A DNA stretch of 56,053 bases, taken from an uncultured Thermoprotei archaeon (GTDB taxonomy: Archaea > Thermoproteota > Thermoprotei > Thermofilales > B15-G2). Under the pieces are notes generated by a model that ran no database searches, was not told the DNA's origin, and was given only the letters and a program-made list of their open reading frames with translations. Every line of letters starts with the position of its first letter. The stretch's first letter is position 1. Location of the stretch: assembly GCA_965367815.1 (NCBI GenBank), contig CBDUKN010000019.1, positions 1 to 56,053 of the forward strand. Reading direction: 5' to 3'. The position numbers and the translations under genes were made by a program. Below, one piece after another: positions 20,950-34,689 of the stretch.

Positions 20950-23693
20950 TGCTTTAAAACTATTTTTAATGTAATTATTTTATGTGCACCTAATTTCACT
21001 TTAATAGTGTTGCCTTCAATACTATTTAGTTCATTCACTATTTCTTCGTTCAAGTTAGTTATCCACGCTTTAGCTACTTCACTTGAGAAAGTTATTTTTG
21101 CTTCTGTTTCTTTGCCGCTAATGTTAAATAGCCTCAATATAATGCTATCGTCGTCTTCTGCTTTCTTGAAAGCGCTTACTACTGCTTCGCTGGGCTCTAT
21201 TTTCATGAAAGAGTATACTGGCTCTATTTCTCCGCTGTGCGGGAAGTCTTCGTGGACTAGTACTGGTACAATGAAGTTTCGGGCAGTCTTGTAGACTTCT
21301 GCTTCAAGCCATGTACCTGAATGCGGTATAATAGAGTACTCGAAGACCCAGATTCCTATCATCTGGGAGTCTTTTGTAGGTATGTGGGGGCCTGCTCCTC
21401 CAGGTCTTGTAAGCAAATCTGATCTAGAGAGCCAGCCAATGCATCTCATTAGTGTGACGAGAATTTCTGTCTCGCCGTTCTTTTTTCTCACTTCGTATTC
21501 GGGGAGACCCTTAGTGGCCACACAGAGACCTTTCTTGCCGTCGTTTACGTCGATCCAGAGTCTAGTCGGCTGAGTAGCTATGTAAGCTTTCGTTCCGTCG
21601 CGGCGTATATAGTAGTATATGGGCTTGTTTGGTCTCTCTACTACATAGAAGTGTGTTTCAGCGAAATGTGTGTCGACATCTACGCCTACTGGAAACTTTA
21701 CGCGGAGTCTATGGTCTTTCGCGTAGTTTTCTACAACTACCTTGACGTCTATTCTAGGTACTTTGCTGTAAAGTGAGACAAATACTGTTATGGGTAGCTT
21801 TACTTTTTCATTGCTCCGAGCTTTTCTGTCTTCAGTGAGACCTCTAGGTATTTCCATTACTGTTGTTACTTTAGCTGTCGCTACGTAGGGTCCTTTCTCG
21901 ATTATTTCTACTGAGGCCTTGAAGTCGCTGCTTTCTACTATGGTGTCTTGGGCTGGAGGCGAATAATCGTACTCGTCTCCTATGTCGCCGCCGTCCTCGA
22001 ATATATTTAAGTCTTCGTAGACAGCGCCAGTTCTCTTGTCTTCTATGCGTATAGCTCCTCCGTGGTCTTCATTGAAACTTACTTTAAAGAACTCGTTTTC
22101 AATCCAGTTTTCGCCTACCTTGATATCGGTTTCTACTTTTTCTTCTCCTCTGGGGACTAGAGCATAGGCCTTGAGGCCGAAGGAGGGAATGTCGTCTACC
22201 CATACTAGCTCGAGGCCGCCGTCTTCTAGTTCTCTAACCTGATAAGGTATGATTTTTCCTTCAAGAGTCTTGAGAGCATACTTTCTGTAATCTATTACTA
22301 GTTTTTCTCCAATCTTATTTTTCAGCGACTCGGGAGGCTTCTTAATTAAAATCTTCTCGAGATTCTCTAAGTACTCTCTAGTCAGCTCTAATTCAGGTCT
22401 AGTTCTAAACCTTACTATTTCTCGTCTAGGCCACGGCAGAGTGTTGTAGGCTACTAAGTATAGTACAGAGTCTTCGCTGAAGTCTAGCTTGACGTGGGAG
22501 TTGATTACTGGTAGAGCATATTTCTTGAAGTTTATGCCAGCGTACTTAGTGAAGTAGTTTATTACATTGAATAGTTTTCCAGTGCACTCGAGAAGCTCGT
22601 CTGCGAGAGTACTCGCTTTAAGTAGTCTTGACTCAACTTCTTTATGTACTTCATCTGTACTGCAGCCGCATATAGAGTCGTGTGGCTGGGAGAGAATAAG
22701 GTACTTCCAAGCCCTCCATATGAATTCTGATGGATATATTTTCTCTAGAAGCCAGGCGAGCGCCCATAGAGGTTCTACTAAGTGAGTTAACTTAACTTCA
22801 CTGCCGAAGCACAGCTGTTTCAAGTATATTCTAGCAGACCAGACGCCATATAGGCAGGAATGATAGTGGCTACTTAGCAGTTCTCCTTTATATTCTCCTA
22901 GCTTTTCTTCACTAGACTTCATTACCTCTACTACGTCTTCGAGAGAACCCTGCTCGACAACAAAAGGCAGGTCTTTTTTGCGAGCATAGTTCTCTACATT
23001 TGGAACCCATTCTTTCGGGAAAGCGTGGTCGCAGCCAATCATTCCAGGTATTACGGGAACATTTGCTCTATCTTTCAGCCTTTCTACAAGTCCTCTGATC
23101 ATTTCAGTAGCTTTCTCGGGGTCATCGGGTAATCCTAGTAGAGTACCGTAGCCTCCATAAAGGAAAACTGTGTAAACGTAGTCTCCGCTCGGAGCAACCC
23201 ACTTAAAGTACATTCCTAAATTCTCGAACTCAGGCCCCATTCCTCGGTGGAAGAAGAAATTGTCGATGCCAAATCCTCTTAGAATCTGCGGCATCTGCGC
23301 AGTATGCCCGAAGATATCGGGCAAGTAGCCTACTTTCATGTAGCCGCCGTACTTTGACGCAGTTCTTATACCGAGCATAAGGTTTCTTACGAGAGATTCT
23401 CCTGAAACGAGGAACTCGTCTGGCTGAATATACCATGGCCCGATTTTTATCCTGCCTTTACTAATGTACTTGACTAACTTTTCTCTGTTCTCTGGCCTTA
23501 CTTCAAGGTAGTCTTCTATTGGAGCTACTTGGCCGTCAAAAACAAAGCACTTGAAGTCCGGTTTTTTCTCCAGTATTTCTAGGAGCTTATCTACGCATGC
23601 TACAAGCCTGTACCTGTATTTGTCGAAGGTGTAGTACCACTCACGGTCCCAGTGAGTATGAGATATTAGTACTACTTTCGTTTTCGCCTTCAT
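20946..23693 (-). CDS. GH38 alpha-mannosidase
   Basis: SHTHWDREWY, GYLPDIFGH and QPHDSICGCS motifs. Confidence 0.95.
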   Translation of the reverse strand: MKAKTKVVLISHTHWDREWYYTFDKYRYRLVACVDKLLEILEKKPDFKCFVFDGQVAPIEDYLEVRPENREKLVKYISKGRIKIGPWYIQPDEFLVSGESLVRNLMLGIRTASKYGGYMKVGYLPDIFGHTAQMPQILRGFGIDNFFFHRGMGPEFENLGMYFKWVAPSGDYVYTVFLYGGYGTLLGLPDDPEKATEMIRGLVERLKDRANVPVIPGMIGCDHAFPKEWVPNVENYARKKDLPFVVEQGSLEDVVEVMKSSEEKLGEYKGELLSSHYHSCLYGVWSARIYLKQLCFGSEVKLTHLVEPLWALAWLLEKIYPSEFIWRAWKYLILSQPHDSICGCSTDEVHKEVESRLLKASTLADELLECTGKLFNVINYFTKYAGINFKKYALPVINSHVKLDFSEDSVLYLVAYNTLPWPRREIVRFRTRPELELTREYLENLEKILIKKPPESLKNKIGEKLVIDYRKYALKTLEGKIIPYQVRELEDGGLELVWVDDIPSFGLKAYALVPRGEEKVETDIKVGENWIENEFFKVSFNEDHGGAIRIEDKRTGAVYEDLNIFEDGGDIGDEYDYSPPAQDTIVESSDFKASVEIIEKGPYVATAKVTTVMEIPRGLTEDRKARSNEKVKLPITVFVSLYSKVPRIDVKVVVENYAKDHRLRVKFPVGVDVDTHFAETHFYVVERPNKPIYYYIRRDGTKAYIATQPTRLWIDVNDGKKGLCVATKGLPEYEVRKKNGETEILVTLMRCIGWLSRSDLLTRPGGAGPHIPTKDSQMIGIWVFEYSIIPHSGTWLEAEVYKTARNFIVPVLVHEDFPHSGEIEPVYSFMKIEPSEAVVSAFKKAEDDDSIILRLFNISGKETEAKITFSSEVAKAWITNLNEEIVNELNSIEGNTIKVKLGAHKIITLKIVLKH

Positions 23694-23780
23694 TGATGAA
23701 ATAGTCTACTAGTTTATTTAAATAAATTCTCGCGGGCAAAACACGCATTCAGCTCATTACGTGAAAAATAGTAAATTCTA

Positions 23781-24602
23781 TTACTCGGAAACTAGGCGGC
23801 AGTACTTGTCGCCTACAGCGATGCAGCGTGTTTCACGGAAACGTATACTCTGGTCAAGTACCGTGCTGAAGAGTCCGCTTAAATATCCTCTAACAAGATT
23901 ACTTGAAGGCTTATACCTGTATTTCAGAGCTTTACATTCAAAGTTTTCGTATAGTTTTAAAGAGATACTAGGTCTAGTCAAATTCATTTCTTCTACTTCG
24001 ACTAAAGCCCAGCCAGCAGCCTGGAGGATTTTAAGAAGCTCTATTAGAAGTTTTTCTTTACCTATTGTCTTCAACTTATCTACCATTATTTTAGCTATAA
24101 ATACACCTCCACCATATCCGAGGTTATAGAGAATAGATGCAGTAACATCACCGTACTTATCATAAAGCGCTTTAAGCATACTTCCTACTTCCTCTAAGGA
24201 AAAGAGCAGTACTCTTGTGTGAAGATCCAAGTAAATAGGGAAAGCCAATTCGCTTACAAGAAAGCCTTTAATAACATTCTTCTTAAACAGCACTTTTCCT
24301 ACAGTATTTGCCTCAAGCTCTTTAAGCATCTGTTTAAGCAGATTATCGTCTATATCAGTTACATCTACTGCAAGAGTTATTGTAGCTTGATTCCATGTTG
24401 GATGAGAATAGCCTATAGTGCTAACTATATTGACTCCATACTTAGCTATAATCTGCAGAGCTTTAGCTAGTTCACCGGGCCTATTTTGTACAGTAAAACA
24501 AAGCTCACCTAGGTCACGGTCCTCTGCAAAGATTATCCACGGTAAATACCGTGGATACGCTTTCTTCATCCGGTACCCTTTAGAAAAGATTTTCTCAAGC
24601 AA
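23781..24602 (-). CDS. ACT + V4R domain protein (paralog 1)
   Basis: NRPGELAKALQIIAKYGVNI (ACT); GW, NFEC, RGYLSG and ETRCIAVGDKYC (V4R). Confidence 0.85.
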   Translation of the reverse strand: MLEKIFSKGYRMKKAYPRYLPWIIFAEDRDLGELCFTVQNRPGELAKALQIIAKYGVNIVSTIGYSHPTWNQATITLAVDVTDIDDNLLKQMLKELEANTVGKVLFKKNVIKGFLVSELAFPIYLDLHTRVLLFSLEEVGSMLKALYDKYGDVTASILYNLGYGGGVFIAKIMVDKLKTIGKEKLLIELLKILQAAGWALVEVEEMNLTRPSISLKLYENFECKALKYRYKPSSNLVRGYLSGLFSTVLDQSIRFRETRCIAVGDKYCRLVSE

Positions 24603-24678
24603 CTTAAAATTATCGCTTACTTTTAAAAATTAAAGAAATCCCAATAACAGATAAATTCCTTAATAGCATATATTTTTC

Positions 24679-25743
24679 GTGAAGTTTGAAAAAGTACTGT
24701 ATTCTCTTCATCCTCAGCAAGTATGTTCTCTTTTAGCCGTAATTCATGGAGCTAAGCCCTCAGCTATAGTAGAGTCTGTGCTAATAGAATCTTGGAAAGA
24801 ATTCGTACATTTTATTCTTTTCTATAAACTTTCATTAGCATATGAAGCATGCCATGGTTTTGTCTTTTTGTTAAATAGTCGTGAAGCATATTTAGTAAAT
24901 AAGAGTACTTTTAATAAACCTTTAAGCGAAGTAGATTTTTCTACAGCTACTAGAATCGACTTAAGTAAATTAGCTTCTATTAAACCTGTAACAAGAAATA
25001 ATATCGACTACGGCGACCTGTTTGTCTCTCAAGACTCTCATCTTTTATTGGAATTAGTTTACTACTATGTTCTGATCAGGAAAGGTAGGAGAACACCTGA
25101 AGTAGATTACAAGCTTGGAGGTCTCTTAGGCTACCCTGAGTGTTGTGTAAAAAGTTATGTGAAGAGAGGACCTGCTAAAGCATGGTATTGCTATCAGAAA
25201 GAACTTATTGAACTTGGTTTAGATCAGGAAATGCCTATAGAGCTGTGGGCAATATACCATGCTCCATGCTCAGCTACTTGCGAAGCTTCAATAAAACTCG
25301 GAGAAGAATACTTGATAGCTGTTAAAGGGGCTTCAGAGAAACTTTATAGAAAAGTTGTCAGCGAGCTTTCTTCAAGTCACTTAGCGTACTCTGTTGGAAG
25401 AAGATTTCTAGACTTCCATGAGACTAAAAGAAGCATAGAGCCTAGCGTAGAGAAATTCGTGACAGAGAAATTGCTTGAGCCCTACTATATTCTCTACGGT
25501 AAGATTCTAAGACCATTTATTTACTGCAAATGGGAAGAAGGAGAGTTTAAACTAAATATTACACGCGAAATAGAAGGCTATAAGTATATAGCATACTCGC
25601 CTGGCGAAGGAGTATTAGTCTTCGATAATAGCCTTAAAATATACATTTACTTAACTAAAAAAATTCTAAGAAAAGATAGTGTTCAATATTCTTTAACAGC
25701 CTTCCGTGTTTATAGAACTAAGCTAGGTTCTCTCGAGCACTAG
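24679..25743 (+). CDS. DUF483-like cysteine-motif protein
   Basis: LGGLLGYPECCVKSY and HAPCSATCEASIKLG motifs. Confidence 0.65.
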   Translation: MKFEKVLYSLHPQQVCSLLAVIHGAKPSAIVESVLIESWKEFVHFILFYKLSLAYEACHGFVFLLNSREAYLVNKSTFNKPLSEVDFSTATRIDLSKLASIKPVTRNNIDYGDLFVSQDSHLLLELVYYYVLIRKGRRTPEVDYKLGGLLGYPECCVKSYVKRGPAKAWYCYQKELIELGLDQEMPIELWAIYHAPCSATCEASIKLGEEYLIAVKGASEKLYRKVVSELSSSHLAYSVGRRFLDFHETKRSIEPSVEKFVTEKLLEPYYILYGKILRPFIYCKWEEGEFKLNITREIEGYKYIAYSPGEGVLVFDNSLKIYIYLTKKILRKDSVQYSLTAFRVYRTKLGSLEH

Positions 25744-26520
25744 TTTACAGTATGGGTCCCCTACAGCAGTACACTTAACTTCTACAAACCTATACTGTTT
25801 TTTGAGTACAGCCGTAAAAACACCACTTAAGTATCCTCGTATGAGATGGCTCGACGGTTTTCTTCTAAATTTAAGTGCTTCACATTCAAAGCTACTAAAT
25901 AACTTCAGCGAAGCCTTTGGAGCAGCTAAGTCTAAGTCCTCTATTTCTACTTTACACCATCCTGTGGCCTGAGGAAACTTAAGTAGCTCTGCTACTATAT
26001 TTTCTAACTCAATTCCCTCTAGTCTTTTCAGCATTTTCTCAGTAAGAGCTTTTCCTCCGCCGAAAGCAAAGTTATATAAAATAGACGCGGCTACATCACC
26101 GTATTTTTCATAAAGACCCTTTAGCATATTCTCAACAACTTCTTCAGAAAGCATTAGTGCCCTAATGTTGGGAGCAACATACATCGGAAAACTTAACTCA
26201 TCGATAATAAACCCTTTTACAGTACTTTTCTTATACCTCACTTTAGACCCAGTTACTCTTTCTAATTCGTTAACTAATGAAGAGAATTCTTTTTCGCTTA
26301 AATTAGATACATCGATAAAGAGTATTATTGGAGCGTATTTCCAGGATGCATGAGAGTACCCAGATGTAGACAGAATATTTACGTGGTATTTGGCTAATAC
26401 CTCTAGTGCTCTAAGCAGGCCTCCAGGTTCGTTTTTGACGAAGAAGCACAATTCACAAAGCTCTCTTCCTTCTACATGGAGCATCCACGGAACATAGCGT
26501 ACTAGTATTTTTTCAACCAT
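25723..26520 (-). CDS. ACT + V4R domain protein (paralog 2)
   Basis: NEPGGL...VNI (ACT); SFEC, RGYLSG and EVKCTAVGDPYC (V4R); clearly homologous to 23781..24602. Confidence 0.85.
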   Translation of the reverse strand: MVEKILVRYVPWMLHVEGRELCELCFFVKNEPGGLLRALEVLAKYHVNILSTSGYSHASWKYAPIILFIDVSNLSEKEFSSLVNELERVTGSKVRYKKSTVKGFIIDELSFPMYVAPNIRALMLSEEVVENMLKGLYEKYGDVAASILYNFAFGGGKALTEKMLKRLEGIELENIVAELLKFPQATGWCKVEIEDLDLAAPKASLKLFSSFECEALKFRRKPSSHLIRGYLSGVFTAVLKKQYRFVEVKCTAVGDPYCKLVLERT

Positions 26521-26773
26521 GTGCCTCTTTATTAACTTGGATTAAATATAATTAAATTTTACGCTAGGCTTTATATCAATATATACTAGTTTAAGGAATA
26601 TTTTCGGTGCTACAGATTGAGAAATAGTAGTTCAAAAAATAAGAAATAGTTTAATTAGATATTTTAAGGCGACACAACATTTAAGTATCGTTATTTAAGT
26701 AACGACTTAACTTAACAGATAGCTAATTCATACTCAGATCAAAGTTTATACATTAAATTAAATATTCATAATT

Positions 26774-26983
26774 GTGAATTATAGGACTACTATAACGATT
26801 TCCGTAAAGACTAAGCAGGCTCTTGAATCACTTAAAGGGGATAAGAGTTGGGATGAGTTTTTATTGGAGCTTGTTGCAGAAGTTCAGCGAGTGAGAAGAG
26901 AAAAGAATAGAGAAAAGCTTGCTGAACTTCTTGAAGCTGAGTTCGATGAAGTGAAAGTGAGAAAATGGGCGAGAGAATACTAG
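26774..26983 (+). CDS. VapB-type antitoxin
   Basis: TTITIS..TKQALESLKGDKSWDEFL; overlaps the PIN gene. Confidence 0.8.
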   Translation: MNYRTTITISVKTKQALESLKGDKSWDEFLLELVAEVQRVRREKNREKLAELLEAEFDEVKVRKWAREY

Positions 26984-27333
26984 TTGACACAGATATTTTT
27001 ATTGACTATTATAAGAGCAGACTAGATCTTCCTCTAGGAAACATCTACTTTATTTCAGTAATATCGCTTTACGAGTATATTAGAGGCACCAAGAATCCTC
27101 AGTTAGCAAAAAAGCTTCTTGAAGAATCTTTTACTATAATACCCCTGACTAACAGTATTTTAGTAAAGGCTTCTGAAATATGGCGTGATTTAAGGAAGAA
27201 AGCTATGATTATAGATGATAGAGACTTAATTATTGGAACTACGGCAATTGTTTTTGATTTAAAGCTTTTAACAAAAAATGTTAAGCATTTTAGTAGGCTA
27301 AAGGACTACGGCCTAGAATTTTACTACTTATAA
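26965..27333 (+). CDS. vapC: VapC PIN-domain toxin
   Basis: ILVDTD, SLYE, DLIIG and TKNVKHF motifs. Confidence 0.9.
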   Translation: MGERILVDTDIFIDYYKSRLDLPLGNIYFISVISLYEYIRGTKNPQLAKKLLEESFTIIPLTNSILVKASEIWRDLRKKAMIIDDRDLIIGTTAIVFDLKLLTKNVKHFSRLKDYGLEFYYL

Positions 27334-27369
27334 CGGAAGTATTATATTTTCATCGATGTAGTCTGCTCT

Positions 27370-29268
27370 GTGAAGTACTCTAAATTTAAGCTACTTTTCG
27401 GAGATATTCATTGTCATTCAAATCTCTCGCTGTGTGGTGTTTGCAGAGGTAAAAAAGACTTGCTGGAAAAAGACTTCTATTTTCACGGCAGCATACTAAG
27501 AGATTACTTTGAGGAAAAAGATGCATACGAGTCTGTCGACTTACTATATGAGTATGCTAGAGATAAAGCTAAACTAGATTTCGCGGCGATAACAGACCAT
27601 GATTTCTCTATGACCGACGAAATGTGGGCTTTTATTAGAAGGAAGGCTTCAGAATGGTATTCTCCAGGAAAATTCACTACTTTCAGCGCATACGAGTGGA
27701 CTTCGTATGCCTACGGACACAGAAACGTCTATTTCCTTACGGACGACAAACCTATATTCAGGTGCGTTAACTATGGCAAATATCCTTCAAGCACGAAAGG
27801 CTATAGTCCAGCCGATCTATGGAGCTTCTTGAGGAAAGTTGAAGCTAAAGCAATTACGATACCTCATCATCCATCTATAACTCAGTTTCCAGTAGACTGG
27901 AGCTACTATGACCCAGAGTTCGATCGACTAGTTGAAATAGCTTCAATATGGGGTGTCTTCGAGTACTATGGAAACCCCGTGTACTGTATGTCTTCAGATA
28001 ATCTGCCCCGCTTCTTCGTAGTAGACGCACTTGAAAAAGGATATAGGCTAGGCATTATAGGAGGCGGCGACACCCACGACTGCTACCCTGGGTCTCCATT
28101 TAGACCAGTTATCATTAAAAACAGGCCCCCTCAAATGAAGTACTTGAACTCACTTACAACAGGTTTCGTAGAGTACTTTCTATACAATCCTTTTGGAGCA
28201 GGACTAGCGGCAGTATATGCCGAGCACAATACTAGAGAAGACATATTTAGAGCGCTCTACGAGAGAAGAGCATACGCGGTCCTAGGAACAAGACTGAGAC
28301 TAGAGTTCAGCATTGATGACTACTTAATGGGCTCCGAGATAAAAGTCTCAGATCCAAACTACAAGCCCGAAATTAGCGTCAGAGTAGAGAGCGATGAGCC
28401 CATAGATAAAGTAGAGTTAATACGCAACGGCAAAGCAATTTACCGTGAATACGGGCCTAGAAGAGCGATTTCATTTAAGTATATTGATGAAGAAAAGCCT
28501 TGCCGGAGACTCAACTACTATTATGTGAGAGTACTTGAGCGCACAGGAGGCAGAGCTTGGTCTAGTCCAATATGGATCTACTATACAGGGCTCCGAGACC
28601 TGATAGCAGAAGTAAAGTTAAGGAAACTAGTACTGAGGCTCGGTGACATGAGAGAAGTGGAAGTATTCTTCAGCAAAACAAAGCCCATTAGAACCATGAA
28701 GCCTCCTAACTTAAGCAACTATAGTAGAGGCAGTTTTTTCTGGATAGAAGAAACCAAAGACTATAGTGTAGTTCTTAAAGCACGATTCAAGAGCTATGAG
28801 CCTGTGAACTTCAAGGGTAGGCTAAAGATAAGTGGCTTCGACACATATACAGTTGAGCCAGTAAACTTCGCTATATGGAAGTACGGAGGAGACCTATTCA
28901 GAGATAACTACGCTGGCATAATAGAATGGGATGTCACTCCATCATCTAACCTAAATCTACTAGATACTAGTAGCGTAAAGGGACTAGACATCCATATTCA
29001 GTTAAACTACAGAGAAGACTGCATAGCAGAAGTAGAAGCTTATCAAAACGGACTAAAAGTACCCGGTGAAACACATGTTAACGGCATAAAAGTACCTAAA
29101 ATACCCTTCAAAATAGTAATATACAGTAGAAAAGACTTAAAGACTCATAAAATATATCTCACTAACGAAAAAACAATAAAAATACCAGCTGACACAAAAT
29201 ACTGCATAATTTATCCAGCATACTTCACTAAAACAAAACTAAAAGAAGCAATACTATCTATCCAGTAA
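27370..29268 (+). CDS. PHP-like (CehA/McbA, DUF3604-like) metallohydrolase
   Basis: GDIHCHS, AITDH, GHRNVY, IPHH, GGDTH and AWSSPIW motifs. Confidence 0.85.
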   Translation: MKYSKFKLLFGDIHCHSNLSLCGVCRGKKDLLEKDFYFHGSILRDYFEEKDAYESVDLLYEYARDKAKLDFAAITDHDFSMTDEMWAFIRRKASEWYSPGKFTTFSAYEWTSYAYGHRNVYFLTDDKPIFRCVNYGKYPSSTKGYSPADLWSFLRKVEAKAITIPHHPSITQFPVDWSYYDPEFDRLVEIASIWGVFEYYGNPVYCMSSDNLPRFFVVDALEKGYRLGIIGGGDTHDCYPGSPFRPVIIKNRPPQMKYLNSLTTGFVEYFLYNPFGAGLAAVYAEHNTREDIFRALYERRAYAVLGTRLRLEFSIDDYLMGSEIKVSDPNYKPEISVRVESDEPIDKVELIRNGKAIYREYGPRRAISFKYIDEEKPCRRLNYYYVRVLERTGGRAWSSPIWIYYTGLRDLIAEVKLRKLVLRLGDMREVEVFFSKTKPIRTMKPPNLSNYSRGSFFWIEETKDYSVVLKARFKSYEPVNFKGRLKISGFDTYTVEPVNFAIWKYGGDLFRDNYAGIIEWDVTPSSNLNLLDTSSVKGLDIHIQLNYREDCIAEVEAYQNGLKVPGETHVNGIKVPKIPFKIVIYSRKDLKTHKIYLTNEKTIKIPADTKYCIIYPAYFTKTKLKEAILSIQ

Positions 29269-29789
29269 ACAGATAAACTTCTCATCATCTATTAAGCCGC
29301 TGGCTGCTAGAGGTGAAAAGTCATGTAATTTTAAAACAAGAGAGGAAAAATAATATAACTACTATTAGAAATTGCGCAGAGAATATAGAAAATAGAATGT
29401 TGGAGTATTATTAAATGTGCTTGCATTTTCATAGCTAGTGGCTTTCTTGCTTTTTTACTTAAATATAGCACCAAGGATATAAGACCTCTCTTAGTGAACT
29501 ACCTTAAAGTTCTCTCAGATACATACTCAATAGGACTTATATGGACACTCAATGAAGTAATAAAACTTTTAAAATACCCATAGTTTTCAAAAGATAAAGC
29601 GAAGACAACTATCTCTATAAGGATATTAGGTAAGTGCTCAGTCTAACTAGGAGCCTCAGTAGACAAGCGTACTTGGTGAAGCTTTAGCTCGTACTAGTTT
29701 CAGCTAGGAGTCATAGTGAAGAGCTTAGCTTCTGAATGGGTTATAGGGTAAGTGGGTGTAGTACAGTCTAGAGCTAGGTCACTGTATAG

Positions 29790-29815
29790 ATGGTACTAGT
29801 ATCTACTAGTACCAT
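29790..29815. repeat. Perfect 12-bp inverted repeat (hairpin) in a degenerate intergenic region
   Basis: ATGGTACTAGTA-TC-TACTAGTACCAT. Confidence 0.7.
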
Positions 29816-30090
29816 TCTAGTACGCTCCCTCCTTTAGGTGTCTTTCTGAATCTTTGAGAAAAAGATCCATTCTTCTATCCTTGCATAACTTTCTAGTGTT
29901 TATTCCTAGTTTTCTTTATACAAGCTTAGTAATTCTTCGATTGCCGAAGGAGCTAGTAGTAAATCGACAAGACCTTGACTATTTCCAGTAGACTATTAAG
30001 GAGACGAAAGTTAGCCTTTCAACTCTGGTAAATCTCCTCTCTAACATCGATTTCAACAAATTCTTTTGTAGAGAAAATATTTTTAGAAAT

Positions 30091-31452
30091 TTAGCTCGAT
30101 AAACCCTGGCTTTTAAGTTTTTTGTAAGCGTTTAATGCTGCAGTTATTATTGGATATGCTATTGGTGAGGGTGTGAGAAATGGATGAGTTCCATATTGCA
30201 TTGTGTAAAGATCATAAAGGGTCATATGTCTCTGAATAGCCAAAGCTATTAAGTTTATAAACTCTCCTACACAGCTACCACCGCAGGCTTCTCCACCTAA
30301 AAGGTAACCGCCATCTTTACTGAAGATTAATTTAACCTCAATTTTTCTAGCTCCGGGTAGTGTTCCAGGATGCTTATCTACAGTTTCGGCTTTTCCTGTA
30401 ATAACATCGAATCCCATTCTTTTAGCTGCAGATTCCGTTAACCCTGCAACTCCAAAAGCTTCTCCTCCTATCTTCGTTAAAAATACTCCTACAACTCCAA
30501 GAACTGTTCGAGGAAGTCTAAGTCCAGCTATATTTGCTGCTACTATTCTGGCTTCAAAGGCCGCTACAGAGGCAAGTAATGTAGGAGTTGGTGTACCTGT
30601 GAAAAAGCTATGTTTTTCTGCACAGTCTCCAATCGCATAGATATTTGGATCGCTTGTTCTCATGTATTCATCTACGGCAATACCTCTTTCACCAATTTTC
30701 AAACCCGCTTTTTCAGCTAGACTGGTATTTGGTCTGACTCCAACAGTTACAATTACAACATCCGCAGGAATAGTTCTACCATCTGAGAGTCTAACAGCTT
30801 CGACTTTTTCTTTACCTAAGATAGCCTCAACCTTACAATTGGTCATAATTTTTACTCCTTTACTTTTAAGGATTTCTTCAACCTTAACGGCAAATTCTTC
30901 ATCGAAGTTTAAAAGTAAGCAGTGAGACAGAATTTCAATAATAGTTACATCCTTTTTTAGGTTACTTAGGTCGTCTGCAAGTTCTACGCCTATAAATCCT
31001 CCACCAATAATAACAATTTTTTCAGCTTTCCTAACAGCTTTTTGTAGTTCTTGAAGAATCTCCCATTTCTTTATAATTTTATAAACGCCCTTAAGATTTA
31101 TTCCCTTTATCGGTGGAGTAGAGGGTGTCGAACCTGTAGCCAGGATAAGTTTTCTATATTTAAACTTTAAGCCTTTAGCAGTTTCAATAGTTTTAGCTTC
31201 TCTATTTATATTTAAAACTTCATCTACAACAATTTCAACTCCAAGTTTTTTCAAAGGTTCATCTGGAAGGATATTTTTATCACAAGTTTCAAGTGTTGCA
31301 GCTAAATAAGGGATTGCACAGGGTACCTGAACTCTCTCGTCAGCTCTAATTAAGAGGACGTCCAGATCACTACGTAGTGTTCTTAAGGTTAAAGCTGCGG
31401 TATATCCTGCAGCACCACCACCAATTATTATCACGTCATATGTATCTTTCAT
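30091..31452 (-). CDS. FAD-dependent pyridine nucleotide-disulfide oxidoreductase (NADH oxidase/CoA-disulfide reductase family)
   Basis: GGGAAG, single redox Cys in VPCAIPY, LATGS, GGGFIGVE and TSDPNIYAIGD motifs. Confidence 0.92.
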   Translation of the reverse strand: MKDTYDVIIIGGGAAGYTAALTLRTLRSDLDVLLIRADERVQVPCAIPYLAATLETCDKNILPDEPLKKLGVEIVVDEVLNINREAKTIETAKGLKFKYRKLILATGSTPSTPPIKGINLKGVYKIIKKWEILQELQKAVRKAEKIVIIGGGFIGVELADDLSNLKKDVTIIEILSHCLLLNFDEEFAVKVEEILKSKGVKIMTNCKVEAILGKEKVEAVRLSDGRTIPADVVIVTVGVRPNTSLAEKAGLKIGERGIAVDEYMRTSDPNIYAIGDCAEKHSFFTGTPTPTLLASVAAFEARIVAANIAGLRLPRTVLGVVGVFLTKIGGEAFGVAGLTESAAKRMGFDVITGKAETVDKHPGTLPGARKIEVKLIFSKDGGYLLGGEACGGSCVGEFINLIALAIQRHMTLYDLYTMQYGTHPFLTPSPIAYPIITAALNAYKKLKSQGLSS

Positions 31453-31573
31453 TTTCGGTCACTAAACAGTGTTCTTAATGTATTTATTAACATTTCTCAA
31501 TAAATCTCTATAAGACCTAGGAGCTGCCCTCATATTAGGAAATTAATACTTCAAAGGAGATTAAATTTAGATT

Positions 31574-31801
31574 ATAGTTTCTTTGGAGATACTAGGAGTT
31601 ATGTTACGCTTTGTTAGGGGAATCACGTGGCTAGTCTTTATACATTTTTCACCTTAACGTATGTTTCGCTCAACACTCTTACTTTATTTTGGTGAACTTC
31701 TACTTCTGCTATGCAGTCTTCTCTGTAGTTTAACTGAATGTAAATACCTAACCCTTAGTAAAGTGCGGTAACATAACTCCTAGTATCTCCAAAGAAACTA
31801 T
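31574..31801. mobile_element. MITE-like element with 34-bp perfect TIRs enclosing a captured gene fragment
   Basis: ATAGTTTCTTTGGAGATACTAGGAGTTATGTTAC (31574-31607) is the exact reverse complement of 31768-31801; interior 31697-31739 is the reverse complement of 28996-29038. Confidence 0.65.
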
Positions 31802-31803
31802 TC

Positions 31804-32040
31804 TCATTCTTTGAACCATCCATACATGTGTTTTCCTGCTCAGCATTTGTGTATGCTTTTTCTTTACTAACATGTAGTTTAATTTATTGAATTCTTTAGA
31901 GCATCAAAAACAAGCTTGAAGACTATTTCACAGTCTCTTCTTTCTACAATGAGCACATCTCCGGGTTTAAGTCCTTCTCTAAGCTCAGTTGGTATTATTA
32001 CGTTCCACTTACTATCTATCTTAACTTTTCTTACTCTCAC
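31804..32040 (-). pseudogene. AbrB/MazE antitoxin, probably frameshifted, with its toxin partner lost
   Basis: MRVRKVKIDSKWNVIIPTELREGLKPGDVLIVE; first stop at 31879; an ATGA junction at 31807-31804 leads into MRIV, which runs into the inverted repeat. Confidence 0.65.
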
Positions 32041-32086
32041 GCCCACTCCTACTTTTCGACTATGTAAAGCTGTACTCTCTTAAAGA

Positions 32087-32757
32087 ATGAAATTTAAGCC
32101 AGAATTGAGAAATAGTTATGTGAGTAAAATAACTATAGCTGTAGTTATTGTCGCTATAGTGGCGATTATAGGCATTGCTCTGGTCTATATGTTTAGCCAA
32201 GCCGGACCCAAATACGACCTGAAGGGAAAGAAAGTACTAATAGTAATCTTCACAGGGTACAACGACATAGAGTACTCTACTACTAAATCCTATTTAGCTA
32301 AATGCGGCGCCGAAGTAACAGTTCTCGCTATGCATAAAGGAGTAGGCACAAAGTACGATATCTACGTAGGAGACATCAAAGACATAAATAGGCTAGCTGA
32401 CCAGTATGACGCTGTAGTTTTCATAGGAGGCCCTGGCGTCTACAGTAGAGTTATAGGTGAAATAAAAGACGGGAGCGTAGAAAAAGCACAGAAATAGCTA
32501 CAGCTTTTTACAGCAAAGGCAAGTTAGTTGTAGCAATATGCGCCGCGCCAGGAATTCTAGCTAAAGCAGGAATAATCAAAGGAGTAAAAGTAACATGCTT
32601 CAGCGACTCTACGCTAATAAATATCATTAAGGCAAGCGGAGTACAGTACACAGGACAACAAGTAGTAAAAGACAAAAATATTATAACAGCAAACGGCCCC
32701 AATGCTGCTAAAGCTTTCGCAGAAGAGATAGCTAAAACACTTTCAGGTAAAACTTAA
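32087..32757 (+). pseudogene. Membrane-anchored DJ-1/PfpI family protein with a single frameshift
   Basis: N-terminal TM helix, GYNDIEY and YDAVVFIGGPG; after a 1-nt shift near 32490 the reading continues as GKLVVAICAAPGILAKAG...IITANGP to TAA 32757. Confidence 0.85.
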
Positions 32758-33140
32758 TCAGTTAACTCTACTCTAATTTTTTCTCCCTCTTTAACCTTTT
32801 TAAATACCTTAGGATCCCCTTCAATTTTACCGAAGACATTCACTGGGCTAGCAGGCCTTATCTCATTCTCGCTGGGACTTATCGGCGTAGGACCAAAGAA
32901 AATACATATGCTTTGACCAGGAGGCCAATAAGCAACATCACCTATTTCAACAACCTCTTGGGCATTTTCTTCTTCTATTTCAACGGGAGTACTGAAGTAT
33001 ACTTCATCGCCCCACAGCATAGCAGTGCTCTCAATAGGCAGAGCCTTCACTATAGCCTCGACAGTCTTAGGATTCTTGTTTAAAAGCCTAACGTAGACTT
33101 CACCTACCGAAGGAGAAATAATCTTTATTCTCTTAACCAT
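32754..33140 (-). CDS. Cyclophilin-like fold protein (TM1367/DUF369-like)
   Basis: WGDEVYF, GDVAYWPPG and IFFGPTP motifs. Confidence 0.88.
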   Translation of the reverse strand: MVKRIKIISPSVGEVYVRLLNKNPKTVEAIVKALPIESTAMLWGDEVYFSTPVEIEEENAQEVVEIGDVAYWPPGQSICIFFGPTPISPSENEIRPASPVNVFGKIEGDPKVFKKVKEGEKIRVELTD

Positions 33141-33247
33141 AATATTAAGCCTTAAGCCAAGTATTTAAAACTAAACTCGGAAGTAAAGCTGTATTTACAG
33201 CAAAAAGTAAAAACTTAAATAAAGTTGTTTACTAGGAAATAGTAGCA

Positions 33248-33487
33248 ATGGCTAATATTAAGACGAGCTTGGTCATACCAGAGGATATTTACCGAGAATT
33301 AAAGAAACGAGCAGCTGAAGAAAATAGGTCAATTAAAAGCATAGTAATAGAAGCGCTAATAGAATATTTATCTAAAAGTCAAAGTAGCAGAGAAACAAGA
33401 CGTAAATTAATTGAAATCATTACGTCTCCAGTAGAAGGAGCAGGACCCGAAGACTACAAAGAATATGATTACGAGGACTTGGACTAA
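33248..33487 (+). CDS. Ribbon-helix-helix antitoxin
   Basis: KTSLVIPEDIYRELKKRAAEENRSIKSIVIEAL; lies upstream of a PIN gene. Confidence 0.82.
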   Translation: MANIKTSLVIPEDIYRELKKRAAEENRSIKSIVIEALIEYLSKSQSSRETRRKLIEIITSPVEGAGPEDYKEYDYEDLD

Positions 33488-33489
33488 CT

Positions 33490-33969
33490 ATGATTAACGC
33501 AGTAATAGACACCGAGATATGGGCTTTGGCTAAGAAAAAGCCTGTAGCAGCTAGATTCAAGTCGAATGAAGAGTACAAAAGGTATCTTCGAATGCATAGC
33601 AAGGCTGTAGAATTCTTTAGAGAAAAAGTACCCGAAATTAGAATATATATGTCGCTACATCAGCTACTAGAAATATTTCATGTATTAGCATTCAGAGGAA
33701 CAAGGATTTCTTTAGCTGAGGCTCGAAAAGTAGTAGAAATAATACTTCAAGACAAAAACATAGTAAAAGTACCTGTACTACAATCTCATGTTAGGAAGGC
33801 AGTCGAAGATAGCTCTAAGATAGGAATACACGTATGGGACTTCTTATGTATAATCCCTGTAGTAGACTTCATTGATGTCGCGTACTCGTGTGATAAACAT
33901 TTCGTAAAAATTTGCGAAGAATATGGGATCAAGTTAGTTAATCCTGTGGAAGAATGGATAGAAATTTAG
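33490..33969 (+). CDS. PIN-domain toxin
   Basis: AVIDTE, QLLE, VWDF, SCDKHF and VNP motifs. Confidence 0.85.
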   Translation: MINAVIDTEIWALAKKKPVAARFKSNEEYKRYLRMHSKAVEFFREKVPEIRIYMSLHQLLEIFHVLAFRGTRISLAEARKVVEIILQDKNIVKVPVLQSHVRKAVEDSSKIGIHVWDFLCIIPVVDFIDVAYSCDKHFVKICEEYGIKLVNPVEEWIEI

Positions 33970-34014
33970 CGGTAGCTAAAATTTATTTGGGGTCTATGTT
34001 ATACTATTGAGTTC

Positions 34015-34689
34015 ATGAAAGTTTGTGTACTCTACTCAGGCGGAAAGGACTCCAATTTGGCATTACTTAAAGCCAGCAGAGTATTCGATGTAGTGTGCTT
34101 AGTAACGCTCATACCTAGATCAGAAGCAAGCTATCTTTTTCACTATCCTGCAGTAAACCTAGTTGAACTACAGGCAAAGGCTCTTGAACTACCTTTAGTA
34201 AAGGAACTTACTCCTGATGAAGAAGAAGGGGGTTTAATAGCGCTGAAAAATGTTTTAATGAAAGCTAAGAAAATATATGGAGTAGAAGGAGTAGTCACAG
34301 GGGCTATTAGGTCTACTTACCAAGCTTCACGTTTCCAGAAAACATGCTGGGATCTCGACTTATGGTGCTTTAATCCGCTTTGGCTGAAAGATGAAGTATC
34401 TTTGCTTAGAGAAATGCTTACTGAAGGCTTTAAAGTAGTTTTCACTAGAGTAGCAGGCTATCCCTTAAGAAAATCCCTAGTAGGTAGTCTTCTAGACGAA
34501 AATACTGTACGTTTCTTTGAGAAAATAAGGCAATATGTTAATCCGTCAGGTGAAGGAGGGGAGTACGAGACTTTTGTATTAGATATGCCTTTATTTAAAA
34601 AGAGGATAGAGTTACTTGAGTATGAAGTAGTAGGCTCAGACTATGACGCGACACTAATAGTTAAAAAAGCGAGGCTTACAAAAAAATGA
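34015..34689 (+). CDS. dph6: Diphthine--ammonia ligase (Dph6, ATP_bind_4 PP-loop)
   Basis: LYSGGKDS, SYLFH, GAIRSTYQ, PLW and GEGGEYETFVLDMPLF motifs. Confidence 0.9.
   Translation: MKVCVLYSGGKDSNLALLKASRVFDVVCLVTLIPRSEASYLFHYPAVNLVELQAKALELPLVKELTPDEEEGGLIALKNVLMKAKKIYGVEGVVTGAIRSTYQASRFQKTCWDLDLWCFNPLWLKDEVSLLREMLTEGFKVVFTRVAGYPLRKSLVGSLLDENTVRFFEKIRQYVNPSGEGGEYETFVLDMPLFKKRIELLEYEVVGSDYDATLIVKKARLTKK

Follow-up and report, generated by a model that had tools for sequence, protein, structure and literature searches.

A probable small invertible segment formed from a chromosomal rearrangement junction in an uncultured vent archaeon of the Thermoprotei

What kind of element is a short stretch of DNA in which two perfect inverted repeats enclose an inverted piece of a neighboring gene? 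The structure considered here occupies 228 bp (positions 31574-31801) of a 56,053-nt contig from an uncultured Thermoprotei archaeon; this contig, analysed over its whole length, is referred to as the window. An initial annotation of the window had offered two readings, a cargo-carrying miniature transposon (Pack-MITE) or a stem-loop RNA presenting an antisense sequence to the neighboring mRNA. Our comparison with related genomes and metagenomes points in another direction. The structure is probably a chromosomal rearrangement junction that has turned into a small invertible segment.

The anatomy first described for the locus was confirmed. The two 34-nt arms (left arm 31574-31607, plus strand; right arm 31768-31801, minus strand) are 100% complementary with 160 nt between them, and in the predicted fold the pairing extends inward, imperfectly, over ~13 further positions with a 3-nt bulge. 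Within the 160-bp interior (31608-31767), positions 31641-31750 are the reverse complement of 28985-29094 in a nearby gene (110 nt, 76%); blastn reports the same match as 99 nt at 78.8%. The 43-bp core of this match is exact, 28996-29038 being identical to 31697-31739 on the minus strand, and it was also recovered in the whole-genome inverted-repeat scan described below. Identity beyond the core is ~61% (41/67 positions). Here too the annotation was right that the diverged flanks are codon-colinear, with tblastn giving 69.7% over 33 aa and the colinear frame open. The host gene, which contains 28996-29038, is an ORF of 632 aa at 27370-29268 on the plus strand. It had been called PHP/CehA-like; Pfam places it in DUF3604, which is PHP-like (E 1.2e-25). 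The DUF3604 family is not known to be linked to variable surface or restriction functions. The TA dinucleotides at the outer edges of the arms, which had been taken as a possible target duplication, turned out to be uninformative because TA is part of the palindrome (ATAG...CTAT) and is its own complement.

We compared the structure with the rest of its source genome (G000; 2.45 Mb, 99.4% complete) and with 40 other genomes of the order, which include one genome of the same genus (G001; 85% complete). Further copies of the arm, proposed as a check for a transposon family, did not appear. Only two matches to the 34-mer were found in the source genome with up to 3 mismatches, and both are the arms themselves; among the 40 other genomes the arm was found in G001 only, as a single copy upstream of a gene. 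Four of the 41 genomes (G000 included) gave any match at all, the hairpin itself being matched in G001 only and two others giving weak matches to the flanks (E 0.002-0.004). A word-7 blastn search of the whole intergenic region against G000 returned nothing else above chance, and a search of viral contigs with flank and arm together returned 0 matches.

The gene downstream of the single G001 copy is PAPS-reductase-like, and we refer to it as gene X for the purpose of comparison. It has at least 501 codons in G001 and a PAPS_reduct domain according to Pfam. The G001 copy lies on contig C79 (locus L009, 1501-1569), where the upstream piece is followed by the leader and then by ATGTTGCCGCGCTTTACTAAGGG. 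The sequence there is unbroken from A+T-rich upstream DNA through a leader with GGAG into ATG TTG CCG CGC TTT ACT AAG GGG. Window positions 31554-31605, comprising left flank and arm, align with L009 1501-1551 at 92% over 52 nt, and the right arm together with its inner 16 nt (31752-31801) aligns with G001 at 88% over 50 nt. Seen against this alignment, the left arm is made up of a 27-nt leader with GGAG and of ATGTTAC, the first 7 nt of the X coding sequence. The right arm is its reverse complement and comes without the TATA-like piece found upstream of the left arm. Both arms carry the same 5 differences from the single copy in G001, and immediately inward of them identity falls to ~65%.

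More of gene X can be recognized on both sides of the interior. At 31608-31628 (plus strand), beside the left arm, codons 3-9 of an X-type gene survive in diverged form; this remnant has a 3-nt deletion, is nearest to the source genome's own X on contig C10 and forms an 18-codon ORF with the ATG of the arm. Next to the right arm, on the minus strand, are X codons 3-8 (31752-31767; 1 mismatch in 16 against G001 X). The right arm and these inner 16 nt read MLPHFTKG on the minus strand with a stop codon next, and an AAGGG shared by both marks the join between this X piece and the DUF3604 fragment. By alignment, each arm is a copy of the X leader with the first 7 nt of the gene, the two copies being inverted relative to each other, and neither is a transposon end.

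The source genome also has an intact X (contig C10, 52186-50684), which is 79% identical to G001 X in amino acid sequence. It shares homology with G001 X from 3 nt before the ATG and none further upstream. At the DNA level the two X genes (C10 52186-50684 and L009 1544-3047) are 77% identical, which is below the values for the DUF3604 gene (85%) and the oxidoreductase gene (91%) of the same two genomes. A toxin-antitoxin-like pair and a 289-aa gene that lie upstream of X in G001 have no match in G000.

The DUF3604 fragment in the interior (31629-31751, minus strand) is roughly 125 bp long and corresponds to codons ~537-575 in the alignments and tblastn. Its minus-strand frame stays open until a stop codon, 19 codons past the core. 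The fragment is 78-79% identical to the DUF3604 genes of both G000 and G001, and these two genes are 85% identical to each other overall and ~93% identical in the stretch covered by the fragment (estimated from the alignment). At the sites where the two genes differ, the fragment sides with G001 at 5 and with G000 at 4. On this comparison, the fragment was not copied recently from the resident gene.

A second DUF3604 paralogue is present in G001 (loci L011 and L017, from G001 and G001-like contigs), with 52-53% amino acid identity to the window gene; a tblastn search of G000 turned up no counterpart. We considered this paralogue (53% aa) as a source of the fragment and ruled it out, the match being 35% over 23 aa. 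Gene X was found beside the G001-type paralogue in 0 of the 8 loci searched.

The flanking DNA leads to further loci. The G001 contig that carries the oxidoreductase gene follows window 29890-31553 colinearly (91%); past this point its sequence is unrelated to the window. The piece that follows in the window (31554-31573, plus strand) is A+T-rich and TATA-like, with ATTAAATTTA at 31560-31569. It is homologous to DNA just 5' of gene X in G001, occurs on the left side only and is a candidate orphan promoter. On the other side of the hairpin, the homologue of window 31797-31909 lies 33 nt past the DUF3604 stop codon in a G001 contig, and the same spacing is seen in a 41-kb G001-like metagenome contig (L014). 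This stretch includes a predicted terminator on the plus strand (31822-31865), made up of a terminator-like hairpin (31822-31855) and a T-run (31857-31865) and identified by its fold and by G001 homology. It looks like the former terminator of the DUF3604 gene. Relative to G001, the source genome has ~2.5 kb extra (29270-31796) between the DUF3604 gene and this putative former terminator, and the extra DNA holds 620 nt of unique ORF-poor sequence, the oxidoreductase gene and the hairpin.

By homology to G001, three loci meet at this junction. The hairpin is made up of an orphaned upstream end of X, a second and inverted X start, and a fragment of DUF3604. Mapped against G001, it has the upstream region of the oxidoreductase gene on one side and the putative former DUF3604 terminator on the other.

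Several smaller features surround the junction. The unique DNA of ~620 nt (29270-29889) reaches from the DUF3604 stop codon to the 3' region of the oxidoreductase gene and includes a near-palindrome of 26 nt at 29790-29815; it has no ORF of at least 50 aa, no Rfam match and no homologue in the G001 loci compared or elsewhere in G000. To the right of the hairpin is an AbrB/MazE-like gene (31879-32046, minus strand; 55 aa) with no toxin gene downstream, that place being taken by the hairpin. In G001 only the last ~30 nt of this gene and the DNA downstream of it have a homologue, and the ORF is absent. After the DUF3604 stop codon in G001, 9 nt (TTAGTAAAG) match the X 5' end exactly and are a candidate relic of it. 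This match is marginal, as 41 of 2000 shuffles score equally, and it may simply be junction microhomology. For a 41-aa ORF across the right junction, the protein collection yielded no relative.

The DUF3604 protein matched 10 metagenome loci, and one of these (L013, on an 86-kb metagenome contig) is 99% identical to the window. L013 1-9237 is colinear with window 22370-31607 (98.85%), and L013 9398-11896 is colinear with window 31768-34265 (99.36%). Colinearity breaks exactly at the inner ends of the arms, the flanks and arms being the same in both contigs. L013 9204-9431 is the reverse complement of 31574-31801 at 227 of 228 bases, and the single mismatch is a variant at 31621 that is also carried by the public sequencing runs X1-X3. 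Across 11.9 kb the flip of the interior is the sole structural difference between the two contigs. The 160-bp interior lies in opposite orientations in two conspecific assemblies that are ~1% divergent.

The flip changes what can be read at the locus. On the left side of L013 the leader is followed by ATGTTACCGCACTTTACTAAGGG, which makes a contiguous G001-like X start, and the ORF after the leader has 18 codons in one orientation and 8 after the flip. In L013 the DUF3604 fragment is in the sense of the gene, so that one strand contains the 43-mer two times. Each orientation has been seen in a single assembly, not the two within one population, and a single inversion that was fixed in the past would give the same picture.

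The initial annotation had raised the possibility of an amplification or assembly chimera, in which case sequences would fail to span the junctions. Thirteen public runs contain part of the stretch, six of them with at least half of the sampled words, and 0 of the 13 are RNA. In all four of the runs that we followed up (from 2018, 2018, 2022 and 2025), contigs include every junction between flank and arm and between arm and interior. In one strain (X3) the interior differs by 3 substitutions (31621, 31627 and 31668), while arms and core are unchanged. Since all four runs contain the junctions and an independent 86-kb contig has the structure, it is not a one-off assembly chimera. The run contigs are 31-mer graphs, which break only at the 34-bp arms and the 43-bp core. 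Because such a graph must break at these repeats, the run contigs are blind to the orientation of the interior. In X1 we also noted a joint between opposite strands (depth 12), which was set aside; judging from its loose ends, it comes from the single X upstream region of a G001-like organism.

We propose that the perfect 34-bp arms act as a recombination substrate through which the 160-bp interior would be inverted. The flipping most likely relies on general homologous recombination across the arms, or on template switching there during replication, with no dedicated invertase involved. We infer general recombination because the 56-kb window holds no recombinase gene. Recombinase and transposase families were matched by 0 of the 50 window ORFs scanned with Pfam (7 in one scan and 43 in a second); 14 of the 43 have no Pfam family, and an unrecognised recombinase may be among them. 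Short inverted repeats can invert the spacer between them without a dedicated enzyme, and Sulfolobales are able to recombine on very short homology.

Both the 34-bp arms and the 43-bp core are islands of perfect identity in copies that are otherwise 35-40% diverged. The proposed short-repeat recombination, working as short-tract gene conversion, would explain both, and on the sequence comparison it is the best account of them; selection on an RNA would fit the islands as well. The earlier suggestion that a perfect core hints at conversion or selection stands, as the 43 nt compare with a longest exact run of 30 nt between the orthologous DUF3604 genes. Of 1857 segments of 43 nt compared between these orthologues, 90 attain the 41/43 of the core.

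We scanned the 2.45-Mb genome for perfect inverted repeats of at least 20 bp within 3 kb and found 17. The longest three are the 43-bp core pair, a 41-bp repeat at a contig end and the 34-bp arms, a ranking that sets the repeats of this locus above chance. The 41-bp repeat is G+C-rich with a 7-nt spacer, lies at the start of contig C11 (9-97) and could be either a real hairpin or an artefact of the assembly end. Two other repeats were considered as sister invertons and rejected. One is a 28-bp repeat on C10 (44286-44562, L030), which encodes the NPPSGCKFH(P/T)RCP motif of two ABC-transporter ATPase genes and reflects the conserved C-terminus of convergent paralogues. The other is a 23-bp repeat with a 237-bp spacer on C8, which sits among the iteron-like repeats of an integrated element. 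That region (C8 ~102500-105800, L031) is integrated-element-like; it encodes a homologue of tyrosine recombinases, and its GTCATTGCAGA-type, iteron-like repeats form a cluster overlapped by a 446-aa ORF.

Could the segment also be transcribed? The orphan X promoter and the DUF3604 terminator might together form a predicted transcription unit of ~270 nt around the invertible segment, composed of the TATA-like sequence (31560-31569), an expected start at ~31590 and the terminator (31822-31865). In the orientation of the window, the RNA made from this unit would be exactly complementary over 43 nt to the mRNA of DUF3604 (28996-29038) and would lower the level of that mRNA. In the flipped orientation the RNA would be sense and inert, and selection would keep the arms and core perfect. 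On the plus strand in the window orientation, the complementarity resembles that expected of a trans-antisense RNA, with 43 nt exact and ~110 nt at 76%.

Several observations are consistent with such an RNA. The promoter piece is conserved at 92% of 52 nt with G001, against 83% for the upstream region of the oxidoreductase gene, and a terminator-like hairpin and T-run stand immediately downstream. The exact 43 nt lie within flanks of 61% identity and exceed the best run of the orthologues (30 nt), and the core is mostly unpaired in the centroid fold. Regulation in trans by antisense RNAs derived from repeats has been reported for a hyperthermophilic crenarchaeon (PMC3674436). However, promoter and terminator are recognized by homology and motif alone, gene conversion accounts for the perfect islands without any function, and the structure was not found in the other genome of the genus (G001, 85% complete). 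Moreover, an RNA starting at ~31590 would include only ~18 nt of the left arm, and a perfect arm of 34 bp would then not be explained by selection at the RNA level. In the folds predicted for the two orientations (-76.6 and -72.9 kcal/mol; z -5.8 and -4.0) the arm stem is the dominant structure; since this stem follows from the repeat itself, it is not independent evidence. A search of Rfam gave 0 matches at the gathering score in the whole window and 0 at E <=1 for 29200-32100. Taken together, we consider an antisense transcription unit unlikely. The fuller proposal, a phase-variable antisense switch built from genomic debris in a hyperthermophilic archaeon and flipped by recombination across the arms, appears rather unlikely as well.

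A different question is whether the inversion is that of a classical inverton, in which a site-specific recombinase encoded at a distance would recognize the arms and flip the segment reversibly and at high frequency, giving phase variation. The dimensions would fit (34-bp repeats and a 160-bp interior), and the orientation varies within the species. The source genome has five tyrosine-recombinase homologues (PF00589) and one serine-recombinase homologue (PF00239), all on other contigs, and invertible regions without an adjacent recombinase are on record for bacteria (PMC9881135). Against this, the 56-kb contig carries no recombinase gene, and at least one of the six recombinases (on C8) belongs to the integrated element. 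The other perfect inverted repeats of the genome are trivially explained and have no motif in common with the arms, which gives no sign of a regulon of sites. On balance a dedicated inverton system seems improbable here, and general recombination across the arms remains our preferred reading.

The difference between the two contigs might also be an error, with the interior mis-oriented in one of the two assemblies. There would then be no inversion, and the locus would be a static scar. The orientation of DNA between perfect repeats is a classic assembly ambiguity, and the public 31-mer contigs do stop at the arms. But both contigs span the locus by tens of kilobases (56 and 86 kb), and the flip is exact at the arm boundaries. 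Ordinary reads are also longer than an arm of 34 bp, as are the word sizes with which the usual metagenome assemblers finish. We therefore regard mis-orientation as very improbable and a true inversion as the better account.

A Pack-type MITE moved by an IS630/Tc1-type transposase with a TA target duplication has in its favor the inverted terminal repeats, the small size and the gene fragment inside, but its supposed ends come from a cellular gene, of which they form the leader and start. We give this reading almost no credence. The left 'end' is no insertion boundary, because G001 homology continues across it unbroken, and no target-site duplication can be recognized there. The 99.4%-complete genome has 0 matches to the IS630-type transposase family DDE_3 (PF13358), which was searched genome-wide; other transposase families were searched within the window ORFs. 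The initial annotation had itself named a single-copy arm with no cognate transposase as the outcome that would speak against a Pack-MITE, and this is what we found. On the sequence evidence the Pack-MITE reading is rejected.

The locus is thus a clean candidate for an invertible segment in an uncultured vent Thermoprotei lineage, and one whose origin can still be read. For bacteria, one of the main routes to reversible heterogeneity is the small invertible segment; in archaea such segments have received very little attention. Here the repeats were supplied by the duplicated 5' end of a gene and the cargo by a gene fragment. This suggests that the scars of a rearrangement can give rise to an invertible element, and possibly to an antisense regulator, without a transposon or a dedicated invertase. 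If the antisense switch were true, cells would toggle between an antisense RNA and a harmless sense RNA, with selection keeping the arms and core perfect while the rest decays. There is also a caution for genome scans, in that perfect terminal repeats with 'cargo' resemble a Pack-MITE and in this case are not one.

Among known systems, the MITEs of archaea and bacteria and the Pack-MITEs of plants are similar to the structure in being small and non-coding, with terminal inverted repeats and a captured gene fragment. They differ from it in that our structure is single-copy, has no matching transposase, shows no target duplication distinguishable from the palindrome and has the leader of a cellular gene at its ends.

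Inversion polymorphism between close genomes of deep-sea-vent archaea has a parallel in Thermococcales. The inversions reported there are large-scale and attributed to a plasmid integrase (PMC5495485), whereas the present one is 160 bp long with no integrase nearby.

Gene-altering programmed inversions are another known system. Candidates for these have been defined by a repeat of at least 22 bp and a flanked region of at most 15 kb (PMC9881135). In the orientation of the window, the DUF3604 gene and its partial copy, with their 43-bp inverted repeat 2658 bp apart, fall within these limits and recall a shufflon-like arrangement. In contrast to such systems, the 2.66-kb region is not inverted in the two assemblies compared (L013 is colinear with window 22370-31607), the partial copy has only 19 codons after the core, and there is no recombinase nearby.

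The locus behaves like the invertons, which in archaea have been called minimally investigated, with 12 putative cases in 42 long-read data sets according to one preprint (10.1101/2023.03.11.532203). The locus shares with them a short segment (228 bp in all) bounded by inverted repeats (34/34), with both orientations in one species as seen in two assemblies. It may also share a promoter-like element at one edge, so that a flip would alter the transcribed sequence. It differs in having no nearby recombinase gene, in that the orientations are those of separate assemblies and not of one population, and in its long arms (34 bp), which are recognisably a duplicated gene 5' end. The promoter candidate, moreover, is outside the flipping part here and not inside it.

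For the possible RNA, the nearest counterpart is the RNA-257 family of Sulfolobus solfataricus, where, as in our locus, a diverged extra copy could yield an RNA complementary to an mRNA (PMC3674436). The target of that family is a 3' UTR and its source a transposon, whereas in the present case the complementary stretch would lie in a coding region and its source would be a gene fragment.
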